A DNA stretch of 64,000 bases from the IMG/VR virus record IMGVR_UViG_3300032167_007427, one strand, 5' to 3'. Position numbers and translations under genes: made by a program. Every line of letters starts with the position of its first letter. The first letter of the stretch is position 1. Below are positions 1,912-41,567 of this stretch, piece by piece. The notes below the pieces were generated by a model that saw only the letters and a list, made by a program, of their open reading frames with translations, did no database searches and had not been told where the DNA came from. Origin of the DNA: an uncultured virus (IMG/VR IMGVR_UViG_3300032167_007427). Taxonomy: Duplodnaviria > Heunggongvirae > Uroviricota > Caudoviricetes.

Positions 1912-2464
1912 GTTGGGAGAAAAAGTTGTTTGTATTGATGACGAAATACCTTTTGTGATACCTGAATCGTGGGCTTGGGTAAGGCTTGGAAACTTATTCG
2001 CTCATAACACGGGAAAGGCTCTCAACTCCTCTAATAGTGCCGGGGAACTAATGACCTACATAACCACTTCAAACCTTTATTGGGGGCGTTTTGTGTTGGA
2101 GAAGCTCAAAGAGATGCCGTTCACGCAGGCTGAGGTTGACAAGTGTACTGTAACATACGGAGATTTGCTCGTATGTGAAGGTGGGGACATCGGTCGTTCT
2201 GCAATATGGGAATTTGACTTTCCTATGCGCATTCAAAACCACATCCATCGTTTACGATCCTATGGGCATATTAGTACAAAATTTTATTATTATGCTATGT
2301 ATTTGTTCAAGCATTCGGGTTTAATCGGTGGAAAAGGTATCGGCATCCAAGGACTGTCATCCAATGCCATACACACTCTTTTATTACCGTTACCCCCGTG
2401 CAAAGAGCAGCAACGCATTGTTGAAGCTATAGAGCAATTAATTCCTTTTTGTGAACGTCTATAA
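1898..2464 (+). CDS. hsdS: Silent HsdS TRD2 cassette c
   Basis: SHYEKLGEKVVCIDDEIPFVIPESWAWVRLG...LPLPPCKEQQRIV; starts at recombination site. Confidence 0.88.
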   Translation, partial: SHYEKLGEKVVCIDDEIPFVIPESWAWVRLGNLFAHNTGKALNSSNSAGELMTYITTSNLYWGRFVLEKLKEMPFTQAEVDKCTVTYGDLLVCEGGDIGRSAIWEFDFPMRIQNHIHRLRSYGHISTKFYYYAMYLFKHSGLIGGKGIGIQGLSSNAIHTLLLPLPPCKEQQRIVEAIEQLIPFCERL

Positions 2465-2465
2465 A

Positions 2466-2504
2466 AGAAGGCATACACCTCAAATTGAAGTGTATGCCTC
2501 TTTC
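2466..2504. terminator. Hairpin between convergent genes
   Basis: AGGCATACAC...GTGTATGCCT with A/T flanks. Confidence 0.7.
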
Positions 2505-2505
2505 C

Positions 2506-3309
2506 TTACCAATCGATTACGGAATCTACGATTTCTCGTTGTTCGGTCGAGGTTTTTCGCAGATAAATACGGGTGGTCTCGATGCTCTCGTGTCCCATAA
2601 GATCTGCGAGGAATGCTATATCGTTACAACGCTCCAAAAAACTCTTTGCAAAGCGGTGACGGAATGAATGCGGGTATACAACCGCCGGATTTATGTTGTA
2701 CTTCACAGCAAGCTTTTTTAGCTGTCCTGAAATGCCACGGGTTGTAATGCGTTCACCATACTTATTCAAAAAAATGAAGCCACTTTCTTGATGCTTATCC
2801 GCCAACCAAGAAAGGGCTTCATTCTGTAAGGCTTTGGGGATGTAAATTCTACGCAATTTCCCGCCTTTTGAATATAAATCAAGGTGGCCAAGTTTTATGT
2901 GTTCAACCTTGATTTGTATGAGTTCGCTTACACGCGCACCCGTTGCAGCAAGGAAGCGTATGACGAAATACCAAAACATCTCATCTTCGTTTTTGAGGCA
3001 GGTTTTGAAGTACTCATAATCCGCTTCACTTATGACATTTTCAAGAAATGCCTTTTGTTGTACCCGGACAAATGGCTGCTTCCATTTCTCCTTTCCGATA
3101 CTTTCAAGGTAACAGTTTATAGCCCGCAACCTCAAATTTACCGTTTTTGGCTTATAGCTCTCGATGAGCCAAATCTTGTAAGCCTTCAAGTTTTTCAGGG
3201 TGACCTCTGCGTATTGTTCTTGGTATTGCCGGACGGCGAACATATACGAAGAAATCGTGTTTTCGGAGAGGTTAGAACCCCTCAAGTGTCTCTCGAATTC
3301 TTTTATCAT
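2506..3309 (-). CDS. Tyrosine recombinase (shufflon invertase)
   Basis: TGARVSEL, KGGKLR, HSFRHRFA, LMGHESIETTRIY; RBS AAGGAGG before MIKEF. Confidence 0.93.
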   Translation of the reverse strand: MIKEFERHLRGSNLSENTISSYMFAVRQYQEQYAEVTLKNLKAYKIWLIESYKPKTVNLRLRAINCYLESIGKEKWKQPFVRVQQKAFLENVISEADYEYFKTCLKNEDEMFWYFVIRFLAATGARVSELIQIKVEHIKLGHLDLYSKGGKLRRIYIPKALQNEALSWLADKHQESGFIFLNKYGERITTRGISGQLKKLAVKYNINPAVVYPHSFRHRFAKSFLERCNDIAFLADLMGHESIETTRIYLRKTSTEQREIVDSVIDW

Positions 3310-3350
3310 AGTGAAAGACCTCCTTTCACTATAATTATACACCTTGGGTT

Positions 3351-4892
3351 TTACAGGGTCTTTACGAGCGTCATAAGTTCATCAATTTTAGCTACGATTC
3401 GATGTTGTTCTTCCCGTGATGGAACTGGTAATAACATTGACAATATACTGTTTCTATCAATACCGGGGATGACACCTTGACCATAAGTTTTTATACGATC
3501 AAAATTCGCTTGAATAAAGAAGAGAATATATTTTGTTATTAACCCCGATGGACACCGTATCGCCATAATTTGTCTTGCTATGTGTGCTTTTTCAATATCA
3601 CAAATCACTGTTTTTCCATACCCGGAGCCCTTACATACTAATAAGATATCTCCTTTTTGCGTTAAAACTTTAGGAACAGGAGTCCATCTATTGATTAGCA
3701 CCCCACTTTCAGACAAACTGCTTGCACCGGTTATATAAGGTATGCCGTTATGCATATCATTATAATCACTGGGAGGAAAGTCCGTTCCCGATAATAATTG
3801 CACTACATTTCCGAGCCTTTCCCAACGCCATGTCAAGGGTAGTTCATAAGGCACTTCGTCGTCTATACAAACAACTTTTTCGCCCAACTTCTCATAATGA
3901 GAATTATCCCGTCTAAAAATGACCGATTCGTGCTTATCTTTCTTGATTTTGCCTTCACGCACGAGCCGTTCCTTTTCACCCCGAATACGCTCAAGCAAAG
4001 CCTCTGCCGGCTCGTCTGTGGGGGCTTGAGGCACAAGTTTTCCTTGTACCGCCCATTGGAGAATAGATTTCTTTAACTGCTCCGGGAAAGATGTATTTAG
4101 CTTTGTAAGTGCCTGCTCGGCTGCATCGTATTGTTCGAGCAAAGGCTCATACTTTTCTATTTCACAAACAATACGCTTTTGCTCTGCTAACGGAGGTACG
4201 GGCAAAAGCATTGCTTTTAAGGTGTTGACACTAACGCCTCCAATAATTCCTGTAGTATTTTCCTTAAAGGCTGCTTGGAACAGCGGGCTTTGGAGATAAT
4301 AGTATAAAAACTTGTAATCAATTCCGAATGATACGAAGCAGCACAGTTTATTTCCGAAGCAAACATCTTGATTTGTGAAGGCGATTTTACGACCGGCGCT
4401 TCCTCCTTCTATACACAAGAGTATGCTGTCCCTGGGAGCAATTCTAAATTGATCTTTTGCAAAAGGTATCCGCACACCGTTGTCGTATGTGATGACGTGA
4501 TCAAAACCAACATCCTTTGTACCAATATAGAAACGACCGTCTGAAAGTCCCGTGTAATGAAGCTTCTTTTCCGTTTCGTTTATGCTGTTGCCCGTGTACA
4601 TATCGTTGACGGACACCAATCTGCACCATTCCCAAGAATCGGGAATGTCAAAAGGCACTTCAAGTTCAACGGTCTCATTGCCGATTTTCTCATAAGGAGT
4701 ATTATCGGCACCACGGAAGATAACCGAAGGGTTCTTTTCACGTTTGATTTTCTTGGCTTTTATAAGTGCTTCCTTCTCTGCTCGGATACGTTCAAGCAGT
4801 ACACTCGCAGGCTCATCGTTAGGGTCTTGAGGCACAAGTTTACCTTGAACTGCCAATTGCAGAATGGAATTCTTCAACTGTTGTGCTGTCAT
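3351..4892 (-). CDS. hsdS: Expressed type I specificity subunit
   Basis: Two TRDs plus conserved regions; overlaps hsdM stop. Confidence 0.95.
   Translation of the reverse strand: MTAQQLKNSILQLAVQGKLVPQDPNDEPASVLLERIRAEKEALIKAKKIKREKNPSVIFRGADNTPYEKIGNETVELEVPFDIPDSWEWCRLVSVNDMYTGNSINETEKKLHYTGLSDGRFYIGTKDVGFDHVITYDNGVRIPFAKDQFRIAPRDSILLCIEGGSAGRKIAFTNQDVCFGNKLCCFVSFGIDYKFLYYYLQSPLFQAAFKENTTGIIGGVSVNTLKAMLLPVPPLAEQKRIVCEIEKYEPLLEQYDAAEQALTKLNTSFPEQLKKSILQWAVQGKLVPQAPTDEPAEALLERIRGEKERLVREGKIKKDKHESVIFRRDNSHYEKLGEKVVCIDDEVPYELPLTWRWERLGNVVQLLSGTDFPPSDYNDMHNGIPYITGASSLSESGVLINRWTPVPKVLTQKGDILLVCKGSGYGKTVICDIEKAHIARQIMAIRCPSGLITKYILFFIQANFDRIKTYGQGVIPGIDRNSILSMLLPVPSREEQHRIVAKIDELMTLVKTL
3889..3903 (-). 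repeat. hsdS recombination site 4, in expressed hsdS
   Basis: TTCTCATAATGAGAA, reverse complement of sites 2 and 3. Confidence 0.85.
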
Positions 4893-30701: not shown

Positions 30702-31739
30702 ATGAGACTTTTTTCAACTGAACAGATAAGCAAATATCATCCAGACAAATATGCCGACCAAATCTCGGATGCAATTCTGACCGAGTGCCTTTTACAGGAT
30801 AAGAACAGCCATTGCGGTATCGAAACTATGGTAAAGGACAACACGGTTATACTCGGCGGTGAGATTACCACAAACGCAAATATCGACTATATCGGTATCG
30901 TCCGTAGGGTTGCCGACAAGCTCGGCTATACCGTTGATTCGGTTATCAACCTTATCGGCAAACAGTCCCACGAAATCAACACAGCAGTTACAGCCGACGA
31001 AAACATCGGTGCAGGCGACCAGGGCATTATGTTCGGGTATGCAACAGCGGAAACAAGAAGTAAGCTTCCTTTCGGTTTTGACCTTGCAAACAAAATCATA
31101 GAAGCTATTGAATTTGATGTTGAAACCAATCCCCGTAGTATCTTTGTTGGTGATGCCAAAACACAGGTGACGGTTGATCTTGATGCCGAGCCCACATTCG
31201 CATCTGTACACAGTATCGTTGTCTCGGTGTGCCATAAGGACACAGTAACCATCGACGAAGTAAGAGGTGTAGTAACTGTTTTGATTAAAAATATCTTCGG
31301 AGAAAACCCTCTCCCTGCACTCATCATCAATCCCTCCGGCACTTGGACCCTCGGTGGCCCCACAGCAGACTGCGGACTTACCGGTCGTAAAATCGTATGC
31401 GACCAGTACGGCGGTTATTGTGCTGTAGGCGGTGGTGCCTTTTCGGGTAAGGACCCTACAAAGGTTGACCGCTCCGCTACATATATGGCAAGGCACCTGG
31501 CTTGTGAGCTCCTTGAGTATTTCGGGCTCAAGTGGTGCGAGGTTCAGCTTGGTTATGCTATCGGCATCGCAGAGCCTGTATCTGTAGTTATTAAGAATGA
31601 CAAAGACATCCCTCTTGAGGACTATGTCCGTGAGAACTATGACCTCACACCCCTGGGTATTATCAGAAGGCTTAACCTACTCAACCGTGATTATGAGCTT
31701 ATTTCAGAGGGGTGCCATTTCAGGGGGACACTCATATGA
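30702..31739 (+). CDS. metK: S-adenosylmethionine synthetase
   Basis: HPDK..DQISD, GAGDQG, GGGAFSGKDPTKVDRS. Confidence 0.93.
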   Translation: MRLFSTEQISKYHPDKYADQISDAILTECLLQDKNSHCGIETMVKDNTVILGGEITTNANIDYIGIVRRVADKLGYTVDSVINLIGKQSHEINTAVTADENIGAGDQGIMFGYATAETRSKLPFGFDLANKIIEAIEFDVETNPRSIFVGDAKTQVTVDLDAEPTFASVHSIVVSVCHKDTVTIDEVRGVVTVLIKNIFGENPLPALIINPSGTWTLGGPTADCGLTGRKIVCDQYGGYCAVGGGAFSGKDPTKVDRSATYMARHLACELLEYFGLKWCEVQLGYAIGIAEPVSVVIKNDKDIPLEDYVRENYDLTPLGIIRRLNLLNRDYELISEGCHFRGTLI

Positions 31740-33001
31740 GCAAGAAAACTACAACCGATATGCAACTCGTCTCTCTTGACAAACTCATACCTTATGTTAA
31801 CAATGCCCGAACCCACTCCCCCGAACAGATAGGCAAACTTCGTTCAAGCCTCCGTGAGTTCGGCTTTATAAATCCCGTCATCATCGACCGTGACTTCGGT
31901 ATCATTGCCGGTCACGGTCGTGTTCTTGCTGCACGTGAGGAAGGCATCACAGAAGTTCCTTGTGTGTTTGTTGACCACCTGACCGAAGCTCAGAAGAAAG
32001 CGTACATCATTGCTGACAACCGTATGGCCCTTGATGCCGGATGGGATGAAGAACTCCTCCGTGTCGAGATTGAAGCATTGCAGGCAGAGGCTTTTGATGT
32101 GTCACTTACGGGTTTCGGCGATGATGAAATTGCAGACCTCTTCGGGAAGGAAAAGGACACGGTTGAGGATGATGGCTATGACCTTTCCGATGCTCTTGAA
32201 AAAGCTGCCTTTGTAGAACGTGGTGACAGATGGTTCGTCGGCAGACACCGCCTTTTCTGTGGTGATGCCACCAACGCCGATGACGTTGCTGCTCTTATGG
32301 ACGGTAACCGTGCAAACCTTATTCTTACTGACCCTCCTTACGGTGTGTCTTTCAAGAGTTCAAGCGGACTTACCATTCAGAACGACAGTATGAAGGACGA
32401 GGAGTTCTATAACTTCCTTCGTAAGGCTTTTGATAATATGGTCGCTCATCTTGAGAATGGCGGCTCAGCCTATGTATTCCACGCAGACACCGAAGGACTT
32501 ACATTCCGTAAGGCTTTTGTTGACGCGGGCTTCCACCTGGCGGGTGTGTGCATTTGGGCAAAGAACAGTCTTGTTCTCGGTCGTTCCGATTATCAGTGGC
32601 AGCACGAGCCTGTGCTGTATGGCTTCCTTAAGAACGGTAAACACAGATGGTACTCCGACAGGAAGCAGACAACCATATGGAACTTCGACAAGCCCAAGAG
32701 AAATGCAAACCATCCCACAAGTAAGCCTCTCGACCTGCTTTCTTATCCTCTCGGTAACTCCTCACAGGAGAATGCTATCGTAATCGATACATTCGGTGGT
32801 TCCGGTTCTACGCTTATGGCTTGTGAGAAAACCAACCGTATCTGTTATACGATGGAACTTGATGAGAAGTACGCTTCCGTTATCCTTCGTCGCTATGTTG
32901 AGGATACGGGAAACGCAGATGATGTATATGTCATACGTAACGGTGAGCGTATTCCTTATGCCGAGCTTGTAAAAGAAGTGGAGGCAGACGTAAATGAGTA
33001 A
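31736..33001 (+). CDS. ParB-domain N6/N4 DNA methyltransferase
   Basis: IIAGHGR ParB, TDPPY, HPTSKP, DTFGGSGST. Confidence 0.93.
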   Translation: MSKKTTTDMQLVSLDKLIPYVNNARTHSPEQIGKLRSSLREFGFINPVIIDRDFGIIAGHGRVLAAREEGITEVPCVFVDHLTEAQKKAYIIADNRMALDAGWDEELLRVEIEALQAEAFDVSLTGFGDDEIADLFGKEKDTVEDDGYDLSDALEKAAFVERGDRWFVGRHRLFCGDATNADDVAALMDGNRANLILTDPPYGVSFKSSSGLTIQNDSMKDEEFYNFLRKAFDNMVAHLENGGSAYVFHADTEGLTFRKAFVDAGFHLAGVCIWAKNSLVLGRSDYQWQHEPVLYGFLKNGKHRWYSDRKQTTIWNFDKPKRNANHPTSKPLDLLSYPLGNSSQENAIVIDTFGGSGSTLMACEKTNRICYTMELDEKYASVILRRYVEDTGNADDVYVIRNGERIPYAELVKEVEADVNE

Positions 33002-35144
33002 CCTTACCCTTGGAAGTCTCTTTGATGGTTCGGGTGGTTTTCCCCTTGGTGGACTAATCGCAGGTATAACACCTGTGTGGGCATCGGAGGTTGAACCCTT
33101 CGCAGTCCGTGTAACAACAAAAAGATTTCCTTTTATGAAGCATTACGGTGATATCTCTGCTATGGACGGCAGCAAGATTGAACCCGTAGATATAATTACC
33201 TTCGGTTCTCCTTGCCAAGATATGAGCGTGGCGGGAAAGCGGAGCGGACTCGACGGTGAAAGGTCGAGTCTTTTTTATGAAGCCGTCCGTATTATTAAAG
33301 AAATGAGGAACGCAACAAATGGAAAATCCCCACGATGGATTTGTTGGGAAAACGTCCCCGGGGCTTTCTCAAGCAATAACGGACACGACTTCAAAGCCGT
33401 CCTCGAAGCGATCATCGGCATCGTCGAAGAGGGTGTCGAGGTGCCTATGCCTGACAAAAACGCCTGGGCATATGCAGACATACTCGTGGGCGACAGATGG
33501 AGCGTGGCATACAGAACTCTCGACGCTCAATACTGGGGTGTCCCCCAACGTCGCCGCAGAATCTACCTTGTCGCAGATCTTGCAGGTGGGAGTGCCGGAG
33601 ACGTATTATTTAAGTCCGAAGGCTTGTCAAGGTATTCTGCGGAGAGCTTCCGTGCGTGGCAAAGAGCTGCCAACGGTTTTGAAAATTGCATTGGAGAGAC
33701 AGGCAGGAATATAAGCACAGCATTCGATGGCTTAGTTCTGAATGACCAAGTAGGAAGCCGAATGGATGTCACCGATGACGTGACTTGTACTCTTCGAGCT
33801 GAAGCACACCATCCCCCGTGTGTCCTTGACACAATCCCTCTCGAAAACCACCCAAACGATGGTCGTATCAAAATAGAAGAAGACGGCAAAGTACAAACCC
33901 TCTCTTCCCGTATGGGAACGGGTGGCAACAATGTACCTCTTGTTATGAAGATTCGTAGCGGATGTTCCGGTGGTGGAAAAGGTGCATTAATCCAAACGAA
34001 CAAGTCAGCAACCCTGGCTTGCAATAATGACCAGACAATGTTTGTTCCCACAAATTGGGACGGCGGTCAAATATCTCCCACCCTTACAAAACAGAACGCC
34101 AGAGGCAATCAGCGAATGCCCGACAAAGACAACTTCAACTGTGTACTTGAACCTTACGGGATAAGTGCTCACGATAGTAATGCAATGAAGTCCGGTAATC
34201 CCCACAGCGGTGTGTATAAAGCTGACACCTCTCGCACCCTTGATGCAAACGGCGGTAATCCTGCCTGCAATCAAGGGGGCATCGCTGTTGTTTGTATCGA
34301 CCAAGGCGGTGGTAAATCTTCTTGTAATGTTACAGAAGAAAAATCCCCAACACTCACTTGTACCCACGGTGGCGAGCCCGCGGTTTGCACTAAGAGTGAA
34401 ACTATTGTAATTGAAGGTAGCGGAGCACGTCCTTCTCACCACGGGGATGGATATAAGGAATCCGATGTAATGTACACCCTTAATACTGTTGAGCGTCATG
34501 CAGTATATGCAATGACCACGGGGTATTACGCACAGGTGTCGGAGGAAACATCTCCTACGCTCCTTTCCAGGGACTATAAAGACCCGACCGTGGTCACCGA
34601 ACCTTCTTACGGTATCGGACGTGACGCATATAACCAAGGACAGAACGCAAAGTTTATGCCTACCATAGAAGAGGAGCTTCAGCCGACACTCGTTGCCAAA
34701 GGCCCCGGTGCTGTAGCCGAACCCATTTCCTTTTATCCTCAGATGAAAGCAGAGTGTACTTGTCCCCTCGAGGGTAAGTCTAACACACTTGTAAACGGTA
34801 CAAATCCCGGTTATCAAAACGGAGTCATTGATACCGACTATACTGTTCGCAGACTTACTCCCGTTGAATGTGCAAGGCTTCAAGGATTTCCCGATTGGTG
34901 GTGTAGCGGTCTTGACGAACCGAGCCCCGCTATTCAGGATGTCCGTTATTGGCAAGAAGTGTGGGATACCTACGCACGAGTTATAGGCGGATGCAAACCG
35001 AAAACAGAAAAACAAGTTCGTAAGTGGCTTGCACACCCTCATTCAGATGCAGCAGAATATAAGCTTTGGGGCAATGGAGTAGCTTTGCCGTGCGTGTTTT
35101 TCGTACTTGCAGGCATCGTGTATTGTACACAAAATGACCGCTGA
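32994..35144 (+). CDS. dcm: C5-cytosine methyltransferase with greatly expanded variable region
   Basis: SLFDGSGG, GSPCQD, ENV, QRRRR, RRLTPVECARLQGFP, GNGV. Confidence 0.93.
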   Translation: MSNLTLGSLFDGSGGFPLGGLIAGITPVWASEVEPFAVRVTTKRFPFMKHYGDISAMDGSKIEPVDIITFGSPCQDMSVAGKRSGLDGERSSLFYEAVRIIKEMRNATNGKSPRWICWENVPGAFSSNNGHDFKAVLEAIIGIVEEGVEVPMPDKNAWAYADILVGDRWSVAYRTLDAQYWGVPQRRRRIYLVADLAGGSAGDVLFKSEGLSRYSAESFRAWQRAANGFENCIGETGRNISTAFDGLVLNDQVGSRMDVTDDVTCTLRAEAHHPPCVLDTIPLENHPNDGRIKIEEDGKVQTLSSRMGTGGNNVPLVMKIRSGCSGGGKGALIQTNKSATLACNNDQTMFVPTNWDGGQISPTLTKQNARGNQRMPDKDNFNCVLEPYGISAHDSNAMKSGNPHSGVYKADTSRTLDANGGNPACNQGGIAVVCIDQGGGKSSCNVTEEKSPTLTCTHGGEPAVCTKSETIVIEGSGARPSHHGDGYKESDVMYTLNTVERHAVYAMTTGYYAQVSEETSPTLLSRDYKDPTVVTEPSYGIGRDAYNQGQNAKFMPTIEEELQPTLVAKGPGAVAEPISFYPQMKAECTCPLEGKSNTLVNGTNPGYQNGVIDTDYTVRRLTPVECARLQGFPDWWCSGLDEPSPAIQDVRYWQEVWDTYARVIGGCKPKTEKQVRKWLAHPHSDAAEYKLWGNGVALPCVFFVLAGIVYCTQNDR
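33319..33714 (+). CDS. Out-of-frame protein nested in dcm (beta-polypeptide-like)
   Basis: RBS GAGGA 9 nt upstream; STLSQIL..VPETYYLSPKACQGILRRA..RGKELP. Confidence 0.65.
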   Translation: MENPHDGFVGKTSPGLSQAITDTTSKPSSKRSSASSKRVSRCLCLTKTPGHMQTYSWATDGAWHTELSTLNTGVSPNVAAESTLSQILQVGVPETYYLSPKACQGILRRASVRGKELPTVLKIALERQAGI

Positions 35145-35246: not shown

Positions 35247-35936
35247 ATGACAATTACAATCAACGCACAGGGCGCAGAACGCAAACGCCTGGTAAAGACA
35301 CTTAGTCATTGGCTTGGTGAGGATGCCCATTACTGCGGAGCTCCCACATTCGCTTACGAGGTCGGTCGATTCACCGTTGACAAAAACGGTAGCATTTCAT
35401 ACAGCGACCTTATCGATGCAGAGGTGGTTGAGAGACTGCTTGAATACCTTTACGACGAGAACTTCGACATCGACATGAGAGACACTACAGAAGAACCTGA
35501 AACAGACAGTTCTACTAACGAAGTTTCCGGTGTAACGATGAGACTTCCCGCAGCGGACTTCACAGATGCCACACTCGCAAACCTTGAGGCACTTGTCAAT
35601 GCCAAAGGCAACCTCATCAAAAAAGCTCTCGGCACCGATGCCCTTCCCATTAACCGACACGAAGAGTACATTGAGTTTCCCTGGTTCAAACCTTTCACCG
35701 AAACGAAAGAGATGGAAGCCTACGCACACTTTCTGAATGCCCTTTGCGAAATGGCAAAGACACAGAAACGTATCACAGCGAAGGAAAAAGCGGTCGATAA
35801 CGAAAAGTACGCATTCAGATGCTTCCTTCTCCGCCTCGGTTTCATCGGCGATGAGTACAAGCAGGAACGTAAGATTCTCCTTCGCAACCTGGAAGGCTCA
35901 TCCGCCTTCAAAACAAAGAAGGAGGTAGGAGCATAA
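35247..35936 (+). CDS. Phage protein (often labelled virulence-related)
   Basis: YCGAPTFAYEVG; NEKYAFRCFLLRLGFIG. Confidence 0.8.
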   Translation: MTITINAQGAERKRLVKTLSHWLGEDAHYCGAPTFAYEVGRFTVDKNGSISYSDLIDAEVVERLLEYLYDENFDIDMRDTTEEPETDSSTNEVSGVTMRLPAADFTDATLANLEALVNAKGNLIKKALGTDALPINRHEEYIEFPWFKPFTETKEMEAYAHFLNALCEMAKTQKRITAKEKAVDNEKYAFRCFLLRLGFIGDEYKQERKILLRNLEGSSAFKTKKEVGA

Positions 35937-36166
35937 TGTTCGGAATCAGAAAAGAAACCCTCGAAAGGCTCCGCCGTGAATATCCCGTGGGATGCCGTGT
36001 GGAACTCATAAGTATGAACGACCCTTACCGAACCGACCTCGTTCCCGGTTGCAAAGGCACGGTTAAGCACGTTGATGACACAGGTACAATCCACGTTCGT
36101 TGGGACATCGGCTCAAGTCTCGGTGTTGTATACGGAGAAGATGCCTGCAAAGTTATCGATGACTAA
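35936..36166 (+). CDS. DUF4314 protein
   Basis: YPVGCRVEL..MNDP...GTV..VDDTGTIHVRWD. Confidence 0.88.
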   Translation: MFGIRKETLERLRREYPVGCRVELISMNDPYRTDLVPGCKGTVKHVDDTGTIHVRWDIGSSLGVVYGEDACKVIDD

Positions 36167-36186
36167 ATGTAGTGTTCGAGAAGTCG

Positions 36187-36276
36187 AATATACACAATAT
36201 AATGTACAAATGATTGTGTAGTATATTATCGCAAAATGACTGGATAATATGTGCTTTTAGAGGTAATATGTGTACA
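36187..36276 (+). promoter_or_regulatory. Moron promoter unit 2 with inverted-repeat operator
   Basis: TACACAAT-N14-ATTGTGTA then TGGATA-N17-TAATAT. Confidence 0.75.
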
Positions 36277-36312
36277 CCGAAAGGGAGAAAACACAAATTA
36301 CGGAGGCACAAA

Positions 36313-37260
36313 ATGAACGCAAAAACCGCAACCTTTATAGAGGAAATGAAGAAACAGACTATCGGCGTTGAAGTCGAGATGAACAACATCAAAAGAGAGA
36401 CTGCAGCCAAGACGGCAGCAAGCTTTTTCAGGACAGGAAGATACGAAAACACCGCAAGCAGAAACGGTTACTACACTTGGAGCGCTTGGGACGACCAAGG
36501 CAGAGAGTGGAAGTTCCAAAGAGACGTCAGCATCAGCGGTCCCGACGATGAAAAGTGCGAAATGGTAACACCGATCCTTACCTGGGACGACATTGAAACC
36601 TTGCAGGAACTTTGCAGACAGCTTCGACACAAAGGAGCCAAGAGCGATGCAACAAGAGGATGCGGAGTTCACATCCACATCGGTGCTAACGGTCACACAC
36701 CCCAAACCATCCGCAACCTTGCAAACATAATGTCAAGCCACGAAAGCCTCCTGAGCTCAGCACTTAACCTCGACTCCGGCAGAGTTTCACGCTACTGCCG
36801 AATGGTAGACAAGAACTTCCTCACCAGGGTGAACAACAAAAAGCCCAAGACAATGTCAGCACTTGCAGACATTTGGTACGGAGCACACGGAAGCAACTAC
36901 GGAAGAAACAACCATTACAACGACAGCCGATACCATATGCTTAACCTCCACGCAACCTTCACCAAGGGAACGGTTGAGTTCCGACTTTTCCAGTTCGATG
37001 CCCCCACAGCCGAACGCAAGGGTGGCATCCACGCAGGACAGCTCAAGAGCTACATACAGCTTTGCCTTGCCCTTTCACAGATGGCTAAAACGGTGAGAAC
37101 CGCAAGCCCCAAGCCTCAGCAGAACGAGAACCCCAAATACGCAATGAGAACCTGGCTCCTCCGCCTTGGTTTCATCGGCGACGAATTCAAGACAGCAAGA
37201 GACCTCTTTACAAATCGCCTTGACGGTGACGCAGCCTTCCGAAACGGCAGAATCGGATAA
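36313..37260 (+). CDS. Amidoligase (COOH-NH2 ligase) family protein
   Basis: TIGVEVE, EMVTPIL, CGVHIHIG, RYHMLN, TVEFRLF. Confidence 0.9.
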   Translation: MNAKTATFIEEMKKQTIGVEVEMNNIKRETAAKTAASFFRTGRYENTASRNGYYTWSAWDDQGREWKFQRDVSISGPDDEKCEMVTPILTWDDIETLQELCRQLRHKGAKSDATRGCGVHIHIGANGHTPQTIRNLANIMSSHESLLSSALNLDSGRVSRYCRMVDKNFLTRVNNKKPKTMSALADIWYGAHGSNYGRNNHYNDSRYHMLNLHATFTKGTVEFRLFQFDAPTAERKGGIHAGQLKSYIQLCLALSQMAKTVRTASPKPQQNENPKYAMRTWLLRLGFIGDEFKTARDLFTNRLDGDAAFRNGRIG

Positions 37261-37339
37261 GGTACACACCGACAATGCCCACCGACCGCTTGAGGCGGTC
37301 TTAAGGTGGTGAAAGGCAAATTTGAAAGGAGATTTTTTT

Positions 37340-37804
37340 ATGCCAAAACGTTATTACATTGCTTACGGAAGCAACCTCAATGTGGAGCAGATGCGATACC
37401 GATACCCTGATGCACGGGTTGTAGGAACGGCAACCCTTGAAGGATGGAGACTTCTTTTCAGGGGAAGCAAGACGGGGTCTTACCTAACTATCGAACCGAA
37501 GGAAGGTTCAACAGTACCCGTTGCTGTTTGGGAGGTTTCCGAACGTGACGAAAGACATCTTGACCACTACGAGGGTTACCCCACCTTCTACTACAAGAAG
37601 GACATCGAAGTGGAGTACAAAGGCATTGCAACCGGCAAGGTTCGCAAGCGTCAAGCTTTTGTGTACATAATGCATGAGGACAGACCGCTCGGTCAGCCGT
37701 CCGACTATTATCTCAAGGTTTGTGCCAGGGGTTACCTTTACTTTGACTTCAACATTGACCACTTAATTCAGGCGGTCAACGACAGTAAGGAGGAAACGAT
37801 ATGA
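37340..37804 (+). CDS. Gamma-glutamylcyclotransferase (AIG2-like)
   Basis: YIAYGSNL, LDHYEGYP. Confidence 0.9.
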   Translation: MPKRYYIAYGSNLNVEQMRYRYPDARVVGTATLEGWRLLFRGSKTGSYLTIEPKEGSTVPVAVWEVSERDERHLDHYEGYPTFYYKKDIEVEYKGIATGKVRKRQAFVYIMHEDRPLGQPSDYYLKVCARGYLYFDFNIDHLIQAVNDSKEETI

Positions 37805-38016
37805 AAACGCCCACAGATGCCCGTATAAGCGCCGTGTGCCCCATTTGCGGTGAGACCTATAACGCTCCCCCGGCGCTCTCAAGAGCCGACGGAAAGACCC
37901 TTATTTGCCCCGACTGCGGAATCCGCGAAGCCTTGTCTTCCATTGGGATTGAGCCTGACGAACAGGAAAAAATCCTCGAAACCATCCACGAGCACACACG
38001 CAGCAAACAGCTGTAA
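37801..38016 (+). CDS. Small zinc-ribbon protein
   Basis: CPICG...ICPDCG. Confidence 0.8.
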   Translation: MKTPTDARISAVCPICGETYNAPPALSRADGKTLICPDCGIREALSSIGIEPDEQEKILETIHEHTRSKQL

Positions 38017-38104
38017 TATACACAATTTTGTCCTCCAAAGATTGTGTACTATATTTCTCGGTTATAACTGGCTATATAGCACATCCTATGGTAATATGTG
38101 TACA
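38015..38104 (+). promoter_or_regulatory. Moron promoter unit 3 with inverted-repeat operator
   Basis: TACACAAT-N14-ATTGTGTA then TGGCTA-N17-TAATAT. Confidence 0.75.
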
Positions 38105-38129
38105 ACAAAAGAAAGCGGAGGACACCCAA

Positions 38130-38321
38130 ATGACAACCTACAAAACCTTCAAAACTCAGGTCGCAAACATCAAAACACAGAACGACCTCATCGATGCCCA
38201 CATAGCGATTTGCCAGGCTTACAGCAATTACAAAATCAGCCACGCACAGTTCACCGAACTTCGCAAGGCAATGATTGAAAAAAGAGCAGTAAAGCACATC
38301 GCCTGGGGCCAAGGCATTTAA
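38130..38321 (+). CDS. Small hypothetical protein
   Basis: RBS GGAGG after promoter unit 3. Confidence 0.7.
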   Translation: MTTYKTFKTQVANIKTQNDLIDAHIAICQAYSNYKISHAQFTELRKAMIEKRAVKHIAWGQGI

Positions 38322-38334
38322 GGAGGACAGCACA

Positions 38335-38604
38335 ATGACATTCACAGATAAGTTCACCACGATGGAACACCTTACAGAAAAGGTTTCCCCCAGCTACGGT
38401 GCGGTTCTTAAATACGGCAACAGAGTATTCGTTACCGACATCCATTGGAAAGGCGGATTCACCGCAACCATTTACGAATTTGTTGATGACCCCGAAGAAA
38501 CCGGACTTGGTGATATCGAATGCAGGCTTTCCAGAATAGCCGAAGCAACACAGCACTTTGAAGACAGCGGTCACGCCATTGCCTGGTGCTTGAAGCAAAA
38601 ATAA
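38335..38604 (+). CDS. Hypothetical protein
   Basis: RBS AAGGAGG; 89 aa. Confidence 0.7.
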   Translation: MTFTDKFTTMEHLTEKVSPSYGAVLKYGNRVFVTDIHWKGGFTATIYEFVDDPEETGLGDIECRLSRIAEATQHFEDSGHAIAWCLKQK

Positions 38605-38654
38605 TCAAAACCCAAATAAATACAGGATAGAGCCGAGAGGCTCTGTTCCTCTCT

Positions 38655-38676
38655 ACAGCCAGACGGCTGTTTTTTT
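38655..38676 (+). terminator. Intrinsic terminator ending the moron block
   Basis: ACAGCC-AGAC-GGCTGT plus T run. Confidence 0.7.
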
Positions 38677-38701
38677 ATTCCTTTGAAAGGAGGCGACCGA
38701 C

Positions 38702-40300
38702 ATAGCCAAAAAGAAATATACCCCTACAAAGTTCAAAGCCAAAGACTCCGTCTACGATAAAAACGCCGCCGACTATGCGGTCAACTTTATTGAATGCCTC
38801 TGTCATACAAAAGGCACCTGGGCGGGAAAACGCTTTGAACTTCTTGATTGGCAAGAACAAATAATCCGTGACCTTTTCGGTACACTCAAGCCGAACGGTT
38901 ACCGACAGTTCAACACCGCATACATTGAAATTCCGAAGAAGATGGGCAAGTCTGAGCTTGCGGCAGCGGTAGCACTCCTCCTCACTTGCGGTGACGGAGA
39001 GGAACGTGCCGAGGTATACGGTTGTGCTGCAGATCGACAGCAAGCCTCTATTGTATTTGAGGTTGCCACCGATATGGTGCGTATGTGTCCGGCACTCTCC
39101 AAACGAGTAAAAATTCTATCAGCTACAAAGCGTATCGTATATATTCCCACGAACAGCTTTTATCAAGTTCTTTCTGCCGAAGCTTACTCCAAGCACGGCT
39201 TTAACATACACGGCGTAGTTTTTGATGAACTCCACACCCAGCCAAACAGAAAACTCTTTGATGTTATGACAAAGGGTTCGGGTGATGCTCGTATGCAACC
39301 GCTTTATTTTCTTATAACCACCGCCGGAACCGACACTCGCTCTATTTGCTATGAAACACACCAAAAGGCAAAGGACATCATCGCGGGGCGAAAGATTGAC
39401 CCAACCTTCTATCCCGTAATTTACGGAGCTGACGAAGCGGATGACTGGACTGACCCGAAGGTATGGAAAAAGGCAAACCCCTCTCTCGGTGTTACTGTAG
39501 GCATCGACAAGGTTCGTGCAGCTTGTGAATCAGCCAAGCAGAACCCTGCCGAGGAAAACGCATTCAGGCAGTTAAGGCTGAACCAATGGGTAAAGCAGTC
39601 AGTCCGTTGGATGCCTATGGAGAAATGGGACCGGTGTGATTTTGCAACACCTGAAGACGAGCTCGAAGGTCGTGTGTGCTATGGTGGTCTTGACCTTTCT
39701 TCCACCACAGACATCACGGCTTTCGTGCTTGTCTTTCCACCCACCGATGATGATGACCGCTATGTCATTCTTCCGTACTTCTGGATACCCGAGGATTGCC
39801 TTGAACTACGTGTACGACGTGACCACGTTCCGTATGACCTATGGGAGCGACAAGAGTTTCTCAATACAACTGAAGGAAATGTAGTCCACTACGGACACAT
39901 CGAGAAGTTTATAGAACGCCTCGGTGAGAAATACAACATTCGAGAAATAGCTTTCGACCGTTGGGGGGCCACGCAGATGGTTCAGAACCTCGAAGGAATG
40001 GGTTTCACCGTCGTTCCTTTCGGACAGGGCTACAAAGATATGTCACCACCTACAAAGGAGCTTATGAAGCTTGTGCTTGAGGAGAAAATCGCACATGGCG
40101 GACATCCGGTACTTCGGTGGATGATGGATAATATCTTTATCCGTACAGATCCGGCGGGTAATATAAAACCCGACAAGGAAAAATCCACAGAAAAGATTGA
40201 CGGCGCGGTTGCCACCATAATGGCTCTCGACCGTGCAATCAGATGTGGTAATGATATGAGTGCTTCGGTTTATGACAACCGAGGTATTTTATTTATATAA
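38702..40300 (+). CDS. terL: Terminase large subunit (ATA start inferred)
   Basis: EIPKKMGKS Walker A, VFDELH, GLDLS, KIDG. Confidence 0.93.
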   Translation: MAKKKYTPTKFKAKDSVYDKNAADYAVNFIECLCHTKGTWAGKRFELLDWQEQIIRDLFGTLKPNGYRQFNTAYIEIPKKMGKSELAAAVALLLTCGDGEERAEVYGCAADRQQASIVFEVATDMVRMCPALSKRVKILSATKRIVYIPTNSFYQVLSAEAYSKHGFNIHGVVFDELHTQPNRKLFDVMTKGSGDARMQPLYFLITTAGTDTRSICYETHQKAKDIIAGRKIDPTFYPVIYGADEADDWTDPKVWKKANPSLGVTVGIDKVRAACESAKQNPAEENAFRQLRLNQWVKQSVRWMPMEKWDRCDFATPEDELEGRVCYGGLDLSSTTDITAFVLVFPPTDDDDRYVILPYFWIPEDCLELRVRRDHVPYDLWERQEFLNTTEGNVVHYGHIEKFIERLGEKYNIREIAFDRWGATQMVQNLEGMGFTVVPFGQGYKDMSPPTKELMKLVLEEKIAHGGHPVLRWMMDNIFIRTDPAGNIKPDKEKSTEKIDGAVATIMALDRAIRCGNDMSASVYDNRGILFI

Positions 40301-40448
40301 TTGCTGCCGTCATTTTATTGTCCCCTATCAAACACCATTTTTGATTATGAAAAATCATGCAGCCGTGATATGATTTTTCATACGGCTAAATACAATTACA
40401 CTTTTTTGTGTTATAATGCCCTCAAACAAATGAACAAGGAGGCGCATT

Positions 40449-40730
40449 ATGCTCTACAAAGAAAAATTTTATGATTTTTTACTGTCAGAAAAAACCATAT
40501 CAAGTGAAAAGGCTGTGATGTCACGGATAGCTAAAGCGAAGGCCGCTGAAAGAATACTTGGCATGGAGTTAGACAAAGTTGTCGCAGATGATGATTTAAT
40601 GTATGATTCCCTTATCAAACTGTCCTACAATGAAGACCCCGCTCATACACCAATGCAAAATGCAGTACGCAAATATTACAAATTCACACATGGTAAAGAA
40701 TTCCCGCGTATGAAAGATTACCGCAGATAA
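40449..40730 (+). CDS. Moron hypothetical protein
   Basis: TGTTATAAT upstream, RBS AAGGAGG, terminator hairpin 40738-40763. Confidence 0.75.
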   Translation: MLYKEKFYDFLLSEKTISSEKAVMSRIAKAKAAERILGMELDKVVADDDLMYDSLIKLSYNEDPAHTPMQNAVRKYYKFTHGKEFPRMKDYRR

Positions 40731-40790
40731 TACATTGAAGCATCCATCAAACGGTGGATGCTTTTCTTAAACCCAAATCAAGGAGGTACA

Positions 40791-41567
40791 ATGGAAAAGC
40801 CTATAAAACATATTGTTTCGCTGTCCGGTGGTAAGGATTCTACTGCTATGCTTCTCCGAATGCTTGAGGAAAGTTGGCCCGTTGATATAATCCTTTTCTG
40901 TGATACGGGCATCGAGTTTGAAGGTATGTATCGACACATAGATAAACTTGAAAAGTATATCGGTATGCCTATTACGAGGCTCAAGTCAAACTATGATTTT
41001 GAGTATCTTCTCCTGGAGCATATGCCGAAACGTAAAAATCCAGAACTTTTCGGTCGCAAGGGATACAGTTGGAGTGGTCCCCGTAACCGTTGGTGTACTG
41101 CAATGCTCAAGCAAAGGGTTATAGACAAATACCTCCGTAGCCTTGCTAAGGAATACACCTTAAAACAGTATATCGGTATCGCCGCAGATGAACCTGAACG
41201 TATAAAGGAATACAACTACCCCTTGTTAGAATGGGGCATGACCGAAGCCGACTGCCTTGCCTATTGTAAGGAGCGAGGCTTTGATTGGGATGGGCTTTAT
41301 GATATCTTTCATAGGGTATCTTGTTGGTGCTGCCCTCTGCAGTCCTATGATGAACTCCGAAAGCTTCGAAAACATTTCCCGGAGCTGTGGGCAAAACTTG
41401 GTGAATGGGATGAAAAGACATGGCGCACATATTTAAAGCACTACTCCGTAAAACAACTTGAAATACGCTTTGCCTTCGAGGAGGAACGCCTGGCACAAGG
41501 ACTTCCTATCAAGGGTAAGGCGTTTTTTGATGCCCTACGAGAAAAGCTGAAAGAAGGTGAAGGATAA
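40791..41567 (+). CDS. PAPS-reductase-family PP-loop protein
   Basis: SLSGGKDS, DTG, RWCT..LK, RVSCWCCP. Confidence 0.88.
   Translation: MEKPIKHIVSLSGGKDSTAMLLRMLEESWPVDIILFCDTGIEFEGMYRHIDKLEKYIGMPITRLKSNYDFEYLLLEHMPKRKNPELFGRKGYSWSGPRNRWCTAMLKQRVIDKYLRSLAKEYTLKQYIGIAADEPERIKEYNYPLLEWGMTEADCLAYCKERGFDWDGLYDIFHRVSCWCCPLQSYDELRKLRKHFPELWAKLGEWDEKTWRTYLKHYSVKQLEIRFAFEEERLAQGLPIKGKAFFDALREKLKEGEG

Follow-up and report, generated by a model that had tools for sequence, protein, structure and literature searches.

An uncultured gut phage of the class Caudoviricetes (IMG/VR record IMGVR_UViG_3300032167_007427), of which a stretch of 64,000 nucleotides (nt) was analysed (hereafter the window), carries a gene for a 716-amino-acid (aa) DNA cytosine-5 (C5) methyltransferase, here called the main gene, and within it, in the +1 reading frame, a second open reading frame (ORF) of 131 codons (Table 1). 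On comparative sequence evidence, this nested ORF is a real gene under purifying selection and not a chance frame. Its product is probably a small docking subunit devoid of the numbered methyltransferase motifs, which the enzyme would need for full activity or assembly; relatives with split genes and a structural model of the complex both point in this direction.

The nested frame is conserved and under selection

Homologous loci were picked by main-frame homology only, 80 from genomes and 80 from viral contigs (58-84% identity), and the 136 complete genes among these 160 loci were reduced to a non-redundant set of 94 genes with less than 95% nucleotide identity. Over the homologous stretch the +1 frame was open in all 160 loci, ending 129-142 codons past the aligned start. 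All 94 genes of the non-redundant set had an open +1 frame, and none had an open +2 frame (mean of 4.7 stops). When synonymous codons were resampled within each gene as a null model, the +1 frame contained on average 1.82 stops and stayed open with a probability of 0.15 per gene. Pairwise amino acid identity in the +1 frame was 0.618 as opposed to 0.294 under this null, with 0.689 for the main frame. The synonymous divergence (dS) of the main frame was 2.01 before the overlap, 0.96 and 0.39 in the two halves of the overlap and 1.69 after it, an approximately five-fold drop whose limits are those of the nested ORF. At sites where the main frame encodes the same amino acid, codon identity was 0.40-0.51 over residues 1-96 and 0.60-0.92 across the overlap, peaked at 0.89-0.92 at main residues 193-240, and fell to 0.55 and then 0.46 just past residue 240, where the +1 frame reaches its stop. 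For the most conserved part of the nested gene (Table 1), dS was 0.39 and same-amino-acid codon identity 0.77-0.92. Stop-codon avoidance and synonymous constraint across homologs, two of the checks proposed in an earlier reading of the letters of this DNA (hereafter the sequence-only reading), were both borne out by these data.

The sequence-only reading had described a 131-aa ORF with its own ribosome-binding site over motifs VI-VIII of the methyltransferase, and this ORF is indeed present and selected, and both its ATG and its GAGG box are conserved. Its span corresponds to main residues 109-240 and contains motifs VI-VIII. Among the 160 loci, the aligned start was ATG in 146 and GTG in nine (155 of 160 together) and another codon in five; three of the latter fall in the non-redundant set, and each of these has an ATG 3-6 nt downstream. 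The GAGGA box is made of Met-Arg codons of the main frame with the arginine written as AGG, a choice found at this codon in 96-97% of the 94 relatives compared with 13% of all arginine codons in the same genes. These features suggest that the nested gene is translated in this phage; one RNA run, in which 5% of the sampled words were present (contigs only), spoke neither for nor against translation. A terminator-like hairpin with a 9-bp stem, an 8-nt loop and a run of T after it lies within the coding part of the methylase gene at 33246-33281 (+ strand), 38-73 nt ahead of the nested ATG. Its pairing was seen in 75.7% of cells in the 94 relatives compared with 72.1% after shuffling, and one pair (columns 9/24) varies on both sides in 20 sequences; with the partner slid by -1 the score was almost as good (65.9%; covariation 0.173 against 0.179). 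The hairpin might act on the passage of ribosomes or polymerase before they reach the nested start.

The most conserved stretch of the nested protein includes the pattern LSQIL...YYLS.KAC.GILRRA..RGKELP..L..AL, and the bases that encode motif VIII in the main frame encode a portion of this stretch; the N-terminal third is basic, rich in serine and lysine and predicted to be disordered. The protein had no match to PF00145 at E<=1 and carries no numbered methyltransferase motif, and its LSxILE..YYLS block, which might correspond to the stretch that lies in frame behind motif VIII in ordinary C5 methylases, had no match at E<=10 in a PDB profile search. A protein atlas search with the nested protein returned only unnamed 'hypothetical protein' clusters from bacteria and viruses. 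A relationship between the nested and the main family was considered and rejected (hhalign probability 0.12).

The nested gene is widespread in phages and rarely annotated

Separately called proteins of 72-230 aa that match the nested protein at E<=0.01 numbered 686, and cluster representatives matching it at E<=0.001 numbered 3264; none of these called proteins and representatives had a Pfam family of its own. The C-terminal block was found by tblastn in 136 phage records. Eight distant annotated methylase genes were checked, namely P1 dmt, Mycobacterium phage Omega gp127, Bcep22 gp25, Vibrio CP-T1 gp12, Sinorhizobium NV1.1.1 dmt, Pseudanabaena Pan4_35, Rctr41k_14 and Pseudomonas D14E, and all eight showed a +1 match in a frame that is open for 135-192 codons and has a start codon near its beginning. 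In these eight genes the nested ORF is unannotated; among nine inspected phage records it was annotated in one, that of Streptococcus phage MM1 (ORF14). The profile phrog_16143 ('DNA methyltransferase') matched 20 of 43 members of the nested family with a best E of 1.6e-8, and the window copy only with E 0.012. Conserved phage +1 ORFs of this class (MM1 ORF14, the +1 ORF of P1 dmt, phrog_16143) lie over motifs VI-VIII, have about 130-190 codons and share the block LSxIL..(Y/F)(Y/F)LS..A..GI(L/I)RR....(G/R)K.LP, and the ORF of the window has all of these properties. In the 266 loci described below and the eight annotated phages, the nested domain occurred nowhere but within or next to a gene of this methylase family. 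Apart from work on M.EcoHK31I (see below), no paper dealing with a conserved ORF nested in phage C5 methylases was found, in a search outside which many subscription journals lay.

In split relatives the nested domain heads a beta chain

Among 266 loci, 220 showed the arrangement of the window, a fused main chain with a short +1 ORF, and 21 further loci looked the same, with the C-terminus off the locus. Five loci were split, with the gene for a beta chain overlapping that for the alpha chain in the +1 frame (L247 and L252 probably belong here too), two were split without overlap (L249 and L250), 12 were broken or otherwise arranged, and four gave no match. In many longer proteins the nested domain is N-terminal, and recognition modules, motif IX and motif X come after it without a change of frame; the beta-type cluster P0327 has 134 member sequences. 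At L248, the alpha chain (motifs I-VIII) stops shortly past motif VIII, and a 441-aa beta chain, starting 374 nt before the alpha stop in the +1 frame, carries the nested domain, the recognition modules, motif IX and motif X in this order. At L250, alpha occupies 2240..2971 and beta 2968..4365, and L249 is arranged likewise. The nested protein of the window is 39% identical to residues 12-138 of the L250 beta chain (E 3e-19), and the main chain of the window aligns to residues 221-458 of the same chain.

The beta chains of the split forms start at the same methionine as the nested ORF and, if the split enzymes work at all, these chains must be translated from this start. The place of the domain at the head of the beta chains indicates that some lineages have it as a regular component of a methyltransferase polypeptide. 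At the non-overlapping loci the +1 frame of alpha either contains stops (L250) or lacks such a sequence (L249), which argues that constraint on the main frame alone does not hold the frame open. Traces of an alpha tail were sought in the -1 frame of the non-overlapping beta genes and a short likeness was found; such a likeness is expected from conserved beta coding anyway, so it does not show the order in which the arrangements arose.

That all long beta-like proteins are frameshift artefacts was considered and rejected for the P0327 group, given its 134 members and the two non-overlapping loci, and the split is kept in loci that are 61-64% identical (L248, L249 and L250). Isolated beta-like cases may be artefacts; P0134, for example, shares 98% identity with the fused locus L164 over its best segment. 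Several unusual forms were observed beside these groups. In the split-type loci L245 (894-2904) and L246, two tyrosine-recombinase-like genes stand where the N-terminal part of alpha is expected, and only a fragment from near motif VI is left before the beta gene; a mobile element may have inserted into this methylase. Four beta-like proteins (P0150, P0155, P0181 and P0196) do not stop at motif X but go on through a segment with motif I (GSLFDGIGGFPL...WASEIE.FP) before ending, and may be circularly permuted or tandem-fused methylases. Dozens of called proteins of about 240 aa (P0271-P0322) begin as the methylase (motifs I-VI) and pass into the +1 frame at varying switch points. One of them, P0274, has 11 members on 19 contigs, and P0322 is an entry of NCBI nr; these fusions look like frameshifted genes or assembly errors.

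A model places the nested protein against the catalytic domain and motif IX

The complex of main chain and nested protein was modelled with a score of 0.73 (runs of 0.70, 0.75 and 0.73), and the best of three controls scored 0.01; a complex prediction by AlphaFold-multimer had been suggested in the sequence-only reading. The mark used for this score was reached by 116 of 157 solved complexes and by two of 215 mismatched pairs, counts that are only roughly valid here because our own alignments were used in the complex model. The runs shared at least 73% of contacts, and the partner had a predicted local distance difference test (pLDDT) value of at least 59. The modelled interface comprises residues 141-167, 174-184, 202-220 and 614-629 on the main side and residues 37-47, 70-89, 96-98 and 120-128 on the nested side. 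The contacts of lowest error are those of nested residues 40-45 with main residues 159-166, and the predicted docking strand for nested residues 37-47 is the main-chain insertion at 141-167. Nested residues 84-89 are predicted to touch motif IX, with contacts of residues 87-89 to main residues 622, 625 and 628. Since the docking insertion lies inside the overlap, the model implies that one set of bases would encode both the docking surface of the enzyme and the residues binding to it. In the nested protein modelled alone, only two C-terminal helices fold with confidence, with a pLDDT of about 90 for residues 100-130.

A small docking subunit is the favoured reading

Taken together, we favour a reading in which the nested gene would be translated from its own ATG and GAGG box on the methylase mRNA, and the small protein would dock at the meeting point of motif IX with the catalytic domain (its insertion at aa 141-167, motifs VII-VIII and the tail behind motif VIII). 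There it would add a strand to the insertion between motifs VI and VII, while its LSQIL...YYLS segment and helices would pack against motifs VIII and IX, and docking would complete or stabilise the junction between the catalytic and recognition parts. In the fused form, the recognition modules and motifs IX-X would have been joined to the alpha chain, and the docking domain would have been left free-standing in the other frame. Binding is predicted by the model, and the enzyme would probably need the small protein for full activity or correct assembly. A two-chain enzyme, as the sequence-only reading had proposed, is plausible, with indirect support from the beta chains headed by the nested domain and from the complex score. 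Tentatively, and with some doubt, the reading may be extended to phage and prophage C5 methyltransferases as a very large class, whose members reach from phages of gut Clostridia to coliphage P1, mycobacteriophage Omega and cyanophage Pan4. These would be obligate two-protein enzymes with an unannotated +1 subunit, about 240 bases encoding both faces of the interface (enzyme aa 141-220, subunit aa 37-112). The C5 activity of P1 Dmt is uncertain.

Several observations weigh against a docking subunit. The main chain already has all six numbered motifs, and nothing obvious is missing from it. The nested protein had no match in Pfam, NCBIfam or a PDB profile search, and it folds poorly alone in AlphaFold2 (AF2; mean pLDDT 61, confident only over residues ~95-130), as does, to a greater degree, the L250 beta chain (AF2 mean pLDDT 43). 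The complex score expresses the model's own confidence, with chain pLDDTs of only about 60, and, although we know of no solved heterodimer of this kind, training on monomeric C5 methyltransferases might let the model fit in a detached piece because it resembles those folds. Split forms are rare (five and two probable overlapping loci and two non-overlapping ones of 266, beside 12 broken genes), and for this reason some of them could be decaying genes. Translation of the nested product, its binding and the need for it are proposed from sequence and model.

We consider it unlikely that the nested protein is real and yet no structural subunit, but a protein that shares the locus and has a task of its own, for instance regulating the expression or timing of the methylase, binding DNA or countering defence. 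Such a separate role would suit a protein with no recognisable methyltransferase motif or family and a basic, Ser/Lys-rich N-terminal third predicted to be disordered, next to a main chain that holds all motifs, but it is hard to square with the split relatives, in which the domain is covalently N-terminal on the chain for recognition and motifs IX-X. The confinement of the domain to loci of this methylase family (266 loci and eight annotated phages) and the score of the complex relative to its best control also speak against it. That the +1 ORF of the fused genes is left over, untranslated, from an ancestral split beta gene and is kept open only via main-frame constraint is very improbable: all 94 genes have the frame open, the ATG and the choice of AGG are conserved, synonymous change is suppressed about five-fold within the limits of the ORF only, the +1 identity is twice the null, and the alpha +1 frame does carry stops where the domain is encoded elsewhere. 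The high conservation of the main frame itself (0.689 pairwise identity) and the 15% of synonymous resampling draws in which the frame stays open are what this explanation has in its favour.

The many PF00145 proteins with a length of about 240 aa and a main-frame N-terminus continued in the +1 frame (such as P0274 and P0322) could be taken as products of ribosomal frameshifting or DNA slippage, by which a 240-aa trans-frame protein (main residues 1 to ~108-150 followed by the +1 part) would be made. Their switch points vary by protein, however, which fits scattered indels or assembly errors and not one programmed site; they lack motif VIII, and both the conserved ATG with its GAGG box and the beta chains of the split forms, which begin at the same methionine, point to independent initiation, leaving this route extremely unlikely. 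A constraint imposed by an RNA or DNA element (a structure or binding site) in place of a second protein, for which the terminator-like hairpin 38-73 nt upstream (33246-33281) could be invoked, has next to no probability in our view. Suppression extends over about 400 nt, with boundaries that coincide with those of the ORF, no stop interrupts the frame in any of the 94 genes, and the same amino acid sequence is encoded without overlap in L249 and L250, by which such an element is largely refuted.

The main methyltransferase gene and its surroundings

The main protein belongs to the C5 DNA methyltransferases by its matches to PF00145 in Pfam (E 2e-42) and to TIGR00675 in NCBIfam (E 4e-37; 128.7 bits, cut-off 100.65). 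It aligns with M.HhaI over residues 6-140 (motifs I-VI), 168-194 (motifs VII-VIII) and 621-641 (motif IX) and has the C5 motifs in canonical order: I (FxGxG), IV (PCQ), VI (ENV), VIII (QxRxR), IX (RxLTxxE) and X (GNxV). Invariant in the main-family alignment A2 are F10, G12 and G15, P73 and C74, E119, N120 and V121, Q185, R187 and R189, R619-E625, and G693 and N694. The variable region from motif VIII to motif IX spans about 420 residues and is the sole basis on which the sequence-only reading's term 'multispecific' could apply to the enzyme. Antisense to this region lies an open frame of 345 codons (34005-35042, - strand), probably a by-product of composition.

Table 1. Features of the main methyltransferase gene and the nested gene in the window
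Feature	Position	Strand	Basis or remark
Main gene, 716-aa DNA cytosine-5 methyltransferase	32994..35144	+	ORF, PF00145, TIGR00675
Nested gene, 131 codons (ATG 33319, TAA 33712-33714)	33319..33714	+	+1 frame of main gene
Shine-Dalgarno-like GAGGA (GAGG box 33305-33308), 9-10 nt before nested ATG	33305..33309	+	Sequence
Most conserved part of nested gene (nested residues 58-129)	33490..33705	+	Invariant or near-invariant columns in alignment A1
Motif VI (ENV)	main aa 119-121	+	Main frame, inside overlap with nested ORF
Insertion relative to M.HhaI between motifs VI and VII (main aa 141-167)	33414..33494	+	27 residues, 3 in M.HhaI
Motif VIII (QRRRR; main aa 185-189)	33546..33560	+	Q185, R186, R187 and R189 invariant in A2
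Motif IX (RRLTPVECARLQGF; main aa 619-632)	34848..34889	+	Main frame; translation and M.HhaI alignment

Around the methylase, phage genes for a DNA polymerase, a primase-helicase, an SNF2-type helicase, the small and large terminase, a portal and a major head protein were found. A likely DNA-modification cluster flanks it (window positions 30702-33001 and 35247-41567). Its immediate upstream neighbour encodes a ParB_N domain and an N6/N4 methylase, and the stop of this gene overlaps the start of the C5 gene by 8 nt; downstream lie two amidoligase-like genes and one gene resembling a 3'-phosphoadenosine-5'-phosphosulfate (PAPS) reductase. An upstream ORF of 345 aa, whose only match is phrog_1569 (function unknown), is presumably similar to an S-adenosylmethionine (SAM) synthetase.

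Significance and comparison with known systems

In bacteria and phages, clearly selected genes that lie wholly within another gene in a different frame are rare, and gene callers discard them. The nested gene is such a missed gene across phages of many host phyla, including the model phage P1, and was annotated in one of nine inspected records (MM1). If its product is a subunit, the composition of a major orphan phage methyltransferase family has been misread. Orphan phage methyltransferases are anti-restriction tools and candidates for epigenetic engineering, and recoded, codon-optimised or truncated constructs would, if this is true, silently lose the subunit. The parts survive in three arrangements, as two genes apart, as two genes that overlap or as one fused gene with a remnant nested in it, an unusual natural series that bears on how overlaps arise and resolve, with one stretch of DNA serving two proteins that may bind each other.

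Two proteins that are encoded in overlapping frames of one transcript and bind each other are described for XLalphas and ALEX of the mammalian GNAS locus in PMC1186735; that system is eukaryotic and unrelated in sequence and function, and binding in the window is predicted by the model. The nearest annotated counterpart is ORF14 (141 aa) of Streptococcus phage MM1 (NC_003050.2), which is placed in the +1 frame of the methylase ORF13. Its residues 104-136 are 39% identical to nested residues 75-107 over 33 residues (E 9e-6), at the same place over motif VIII. The similarity is weak, however, the record labels the product just 'DNA methyltransferase', and RefSeq record NC_003050.2 holds no analysis of its conservation, selection or role.

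Among two-chain C5 methyltransferases, M.AquI, as described in PMC3404938, resembles the split loci L248, L249 and L250, where alpha carries motifs I-VIII and beta the variable region and motifs IX-X. The gene of the window, in contrast, is unsplit and has all motifs on one 716-aa ORF. Moreover, the beta start at L248 overlaps alpha by 374 nt out of frame, and the beta chains of L248, L249 and L250 begin with the extra putative docking domain, features in which they differ from M.AquI.

The closest precedent for the gene layout is M.EcoHK31I, which PMC2836561 and PMC3404938 describe as a heterodimeric C5 methyltransferase (YGGCCR) whose beta chain is encoded inside the alpha gene in another frame, association of both chains being needed for activity, with motif IX on beta and absent from alpha, and which was tested by a start-codon knockout silent in the alpha frame. 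A fallback start came into play in M.EcoHK31I, and M52 of the nested protein could take such a part here. The sequence-only reading had cited this precedent correctly. As in M.EcoHK31I, the second chain of the window lies wholly within the first gene in another frame (Table 1). It was also right that motif IX, unlike in M.EcoHK31I, stays in the main frame here. The beta chain of M.EcoHK31I supplies motif IX, whereas the nested protein has no numbered motif, and for this reason the resemblance that the sequence-only reading suggested between the two is unlikely to be a homology of function. While an M.EcoHK31I-like gene layout is known, a nested chain that carries no numbered motif and is conserved, in the arrangement of the window, across phages of many bacterial phyla sets the present system apart.

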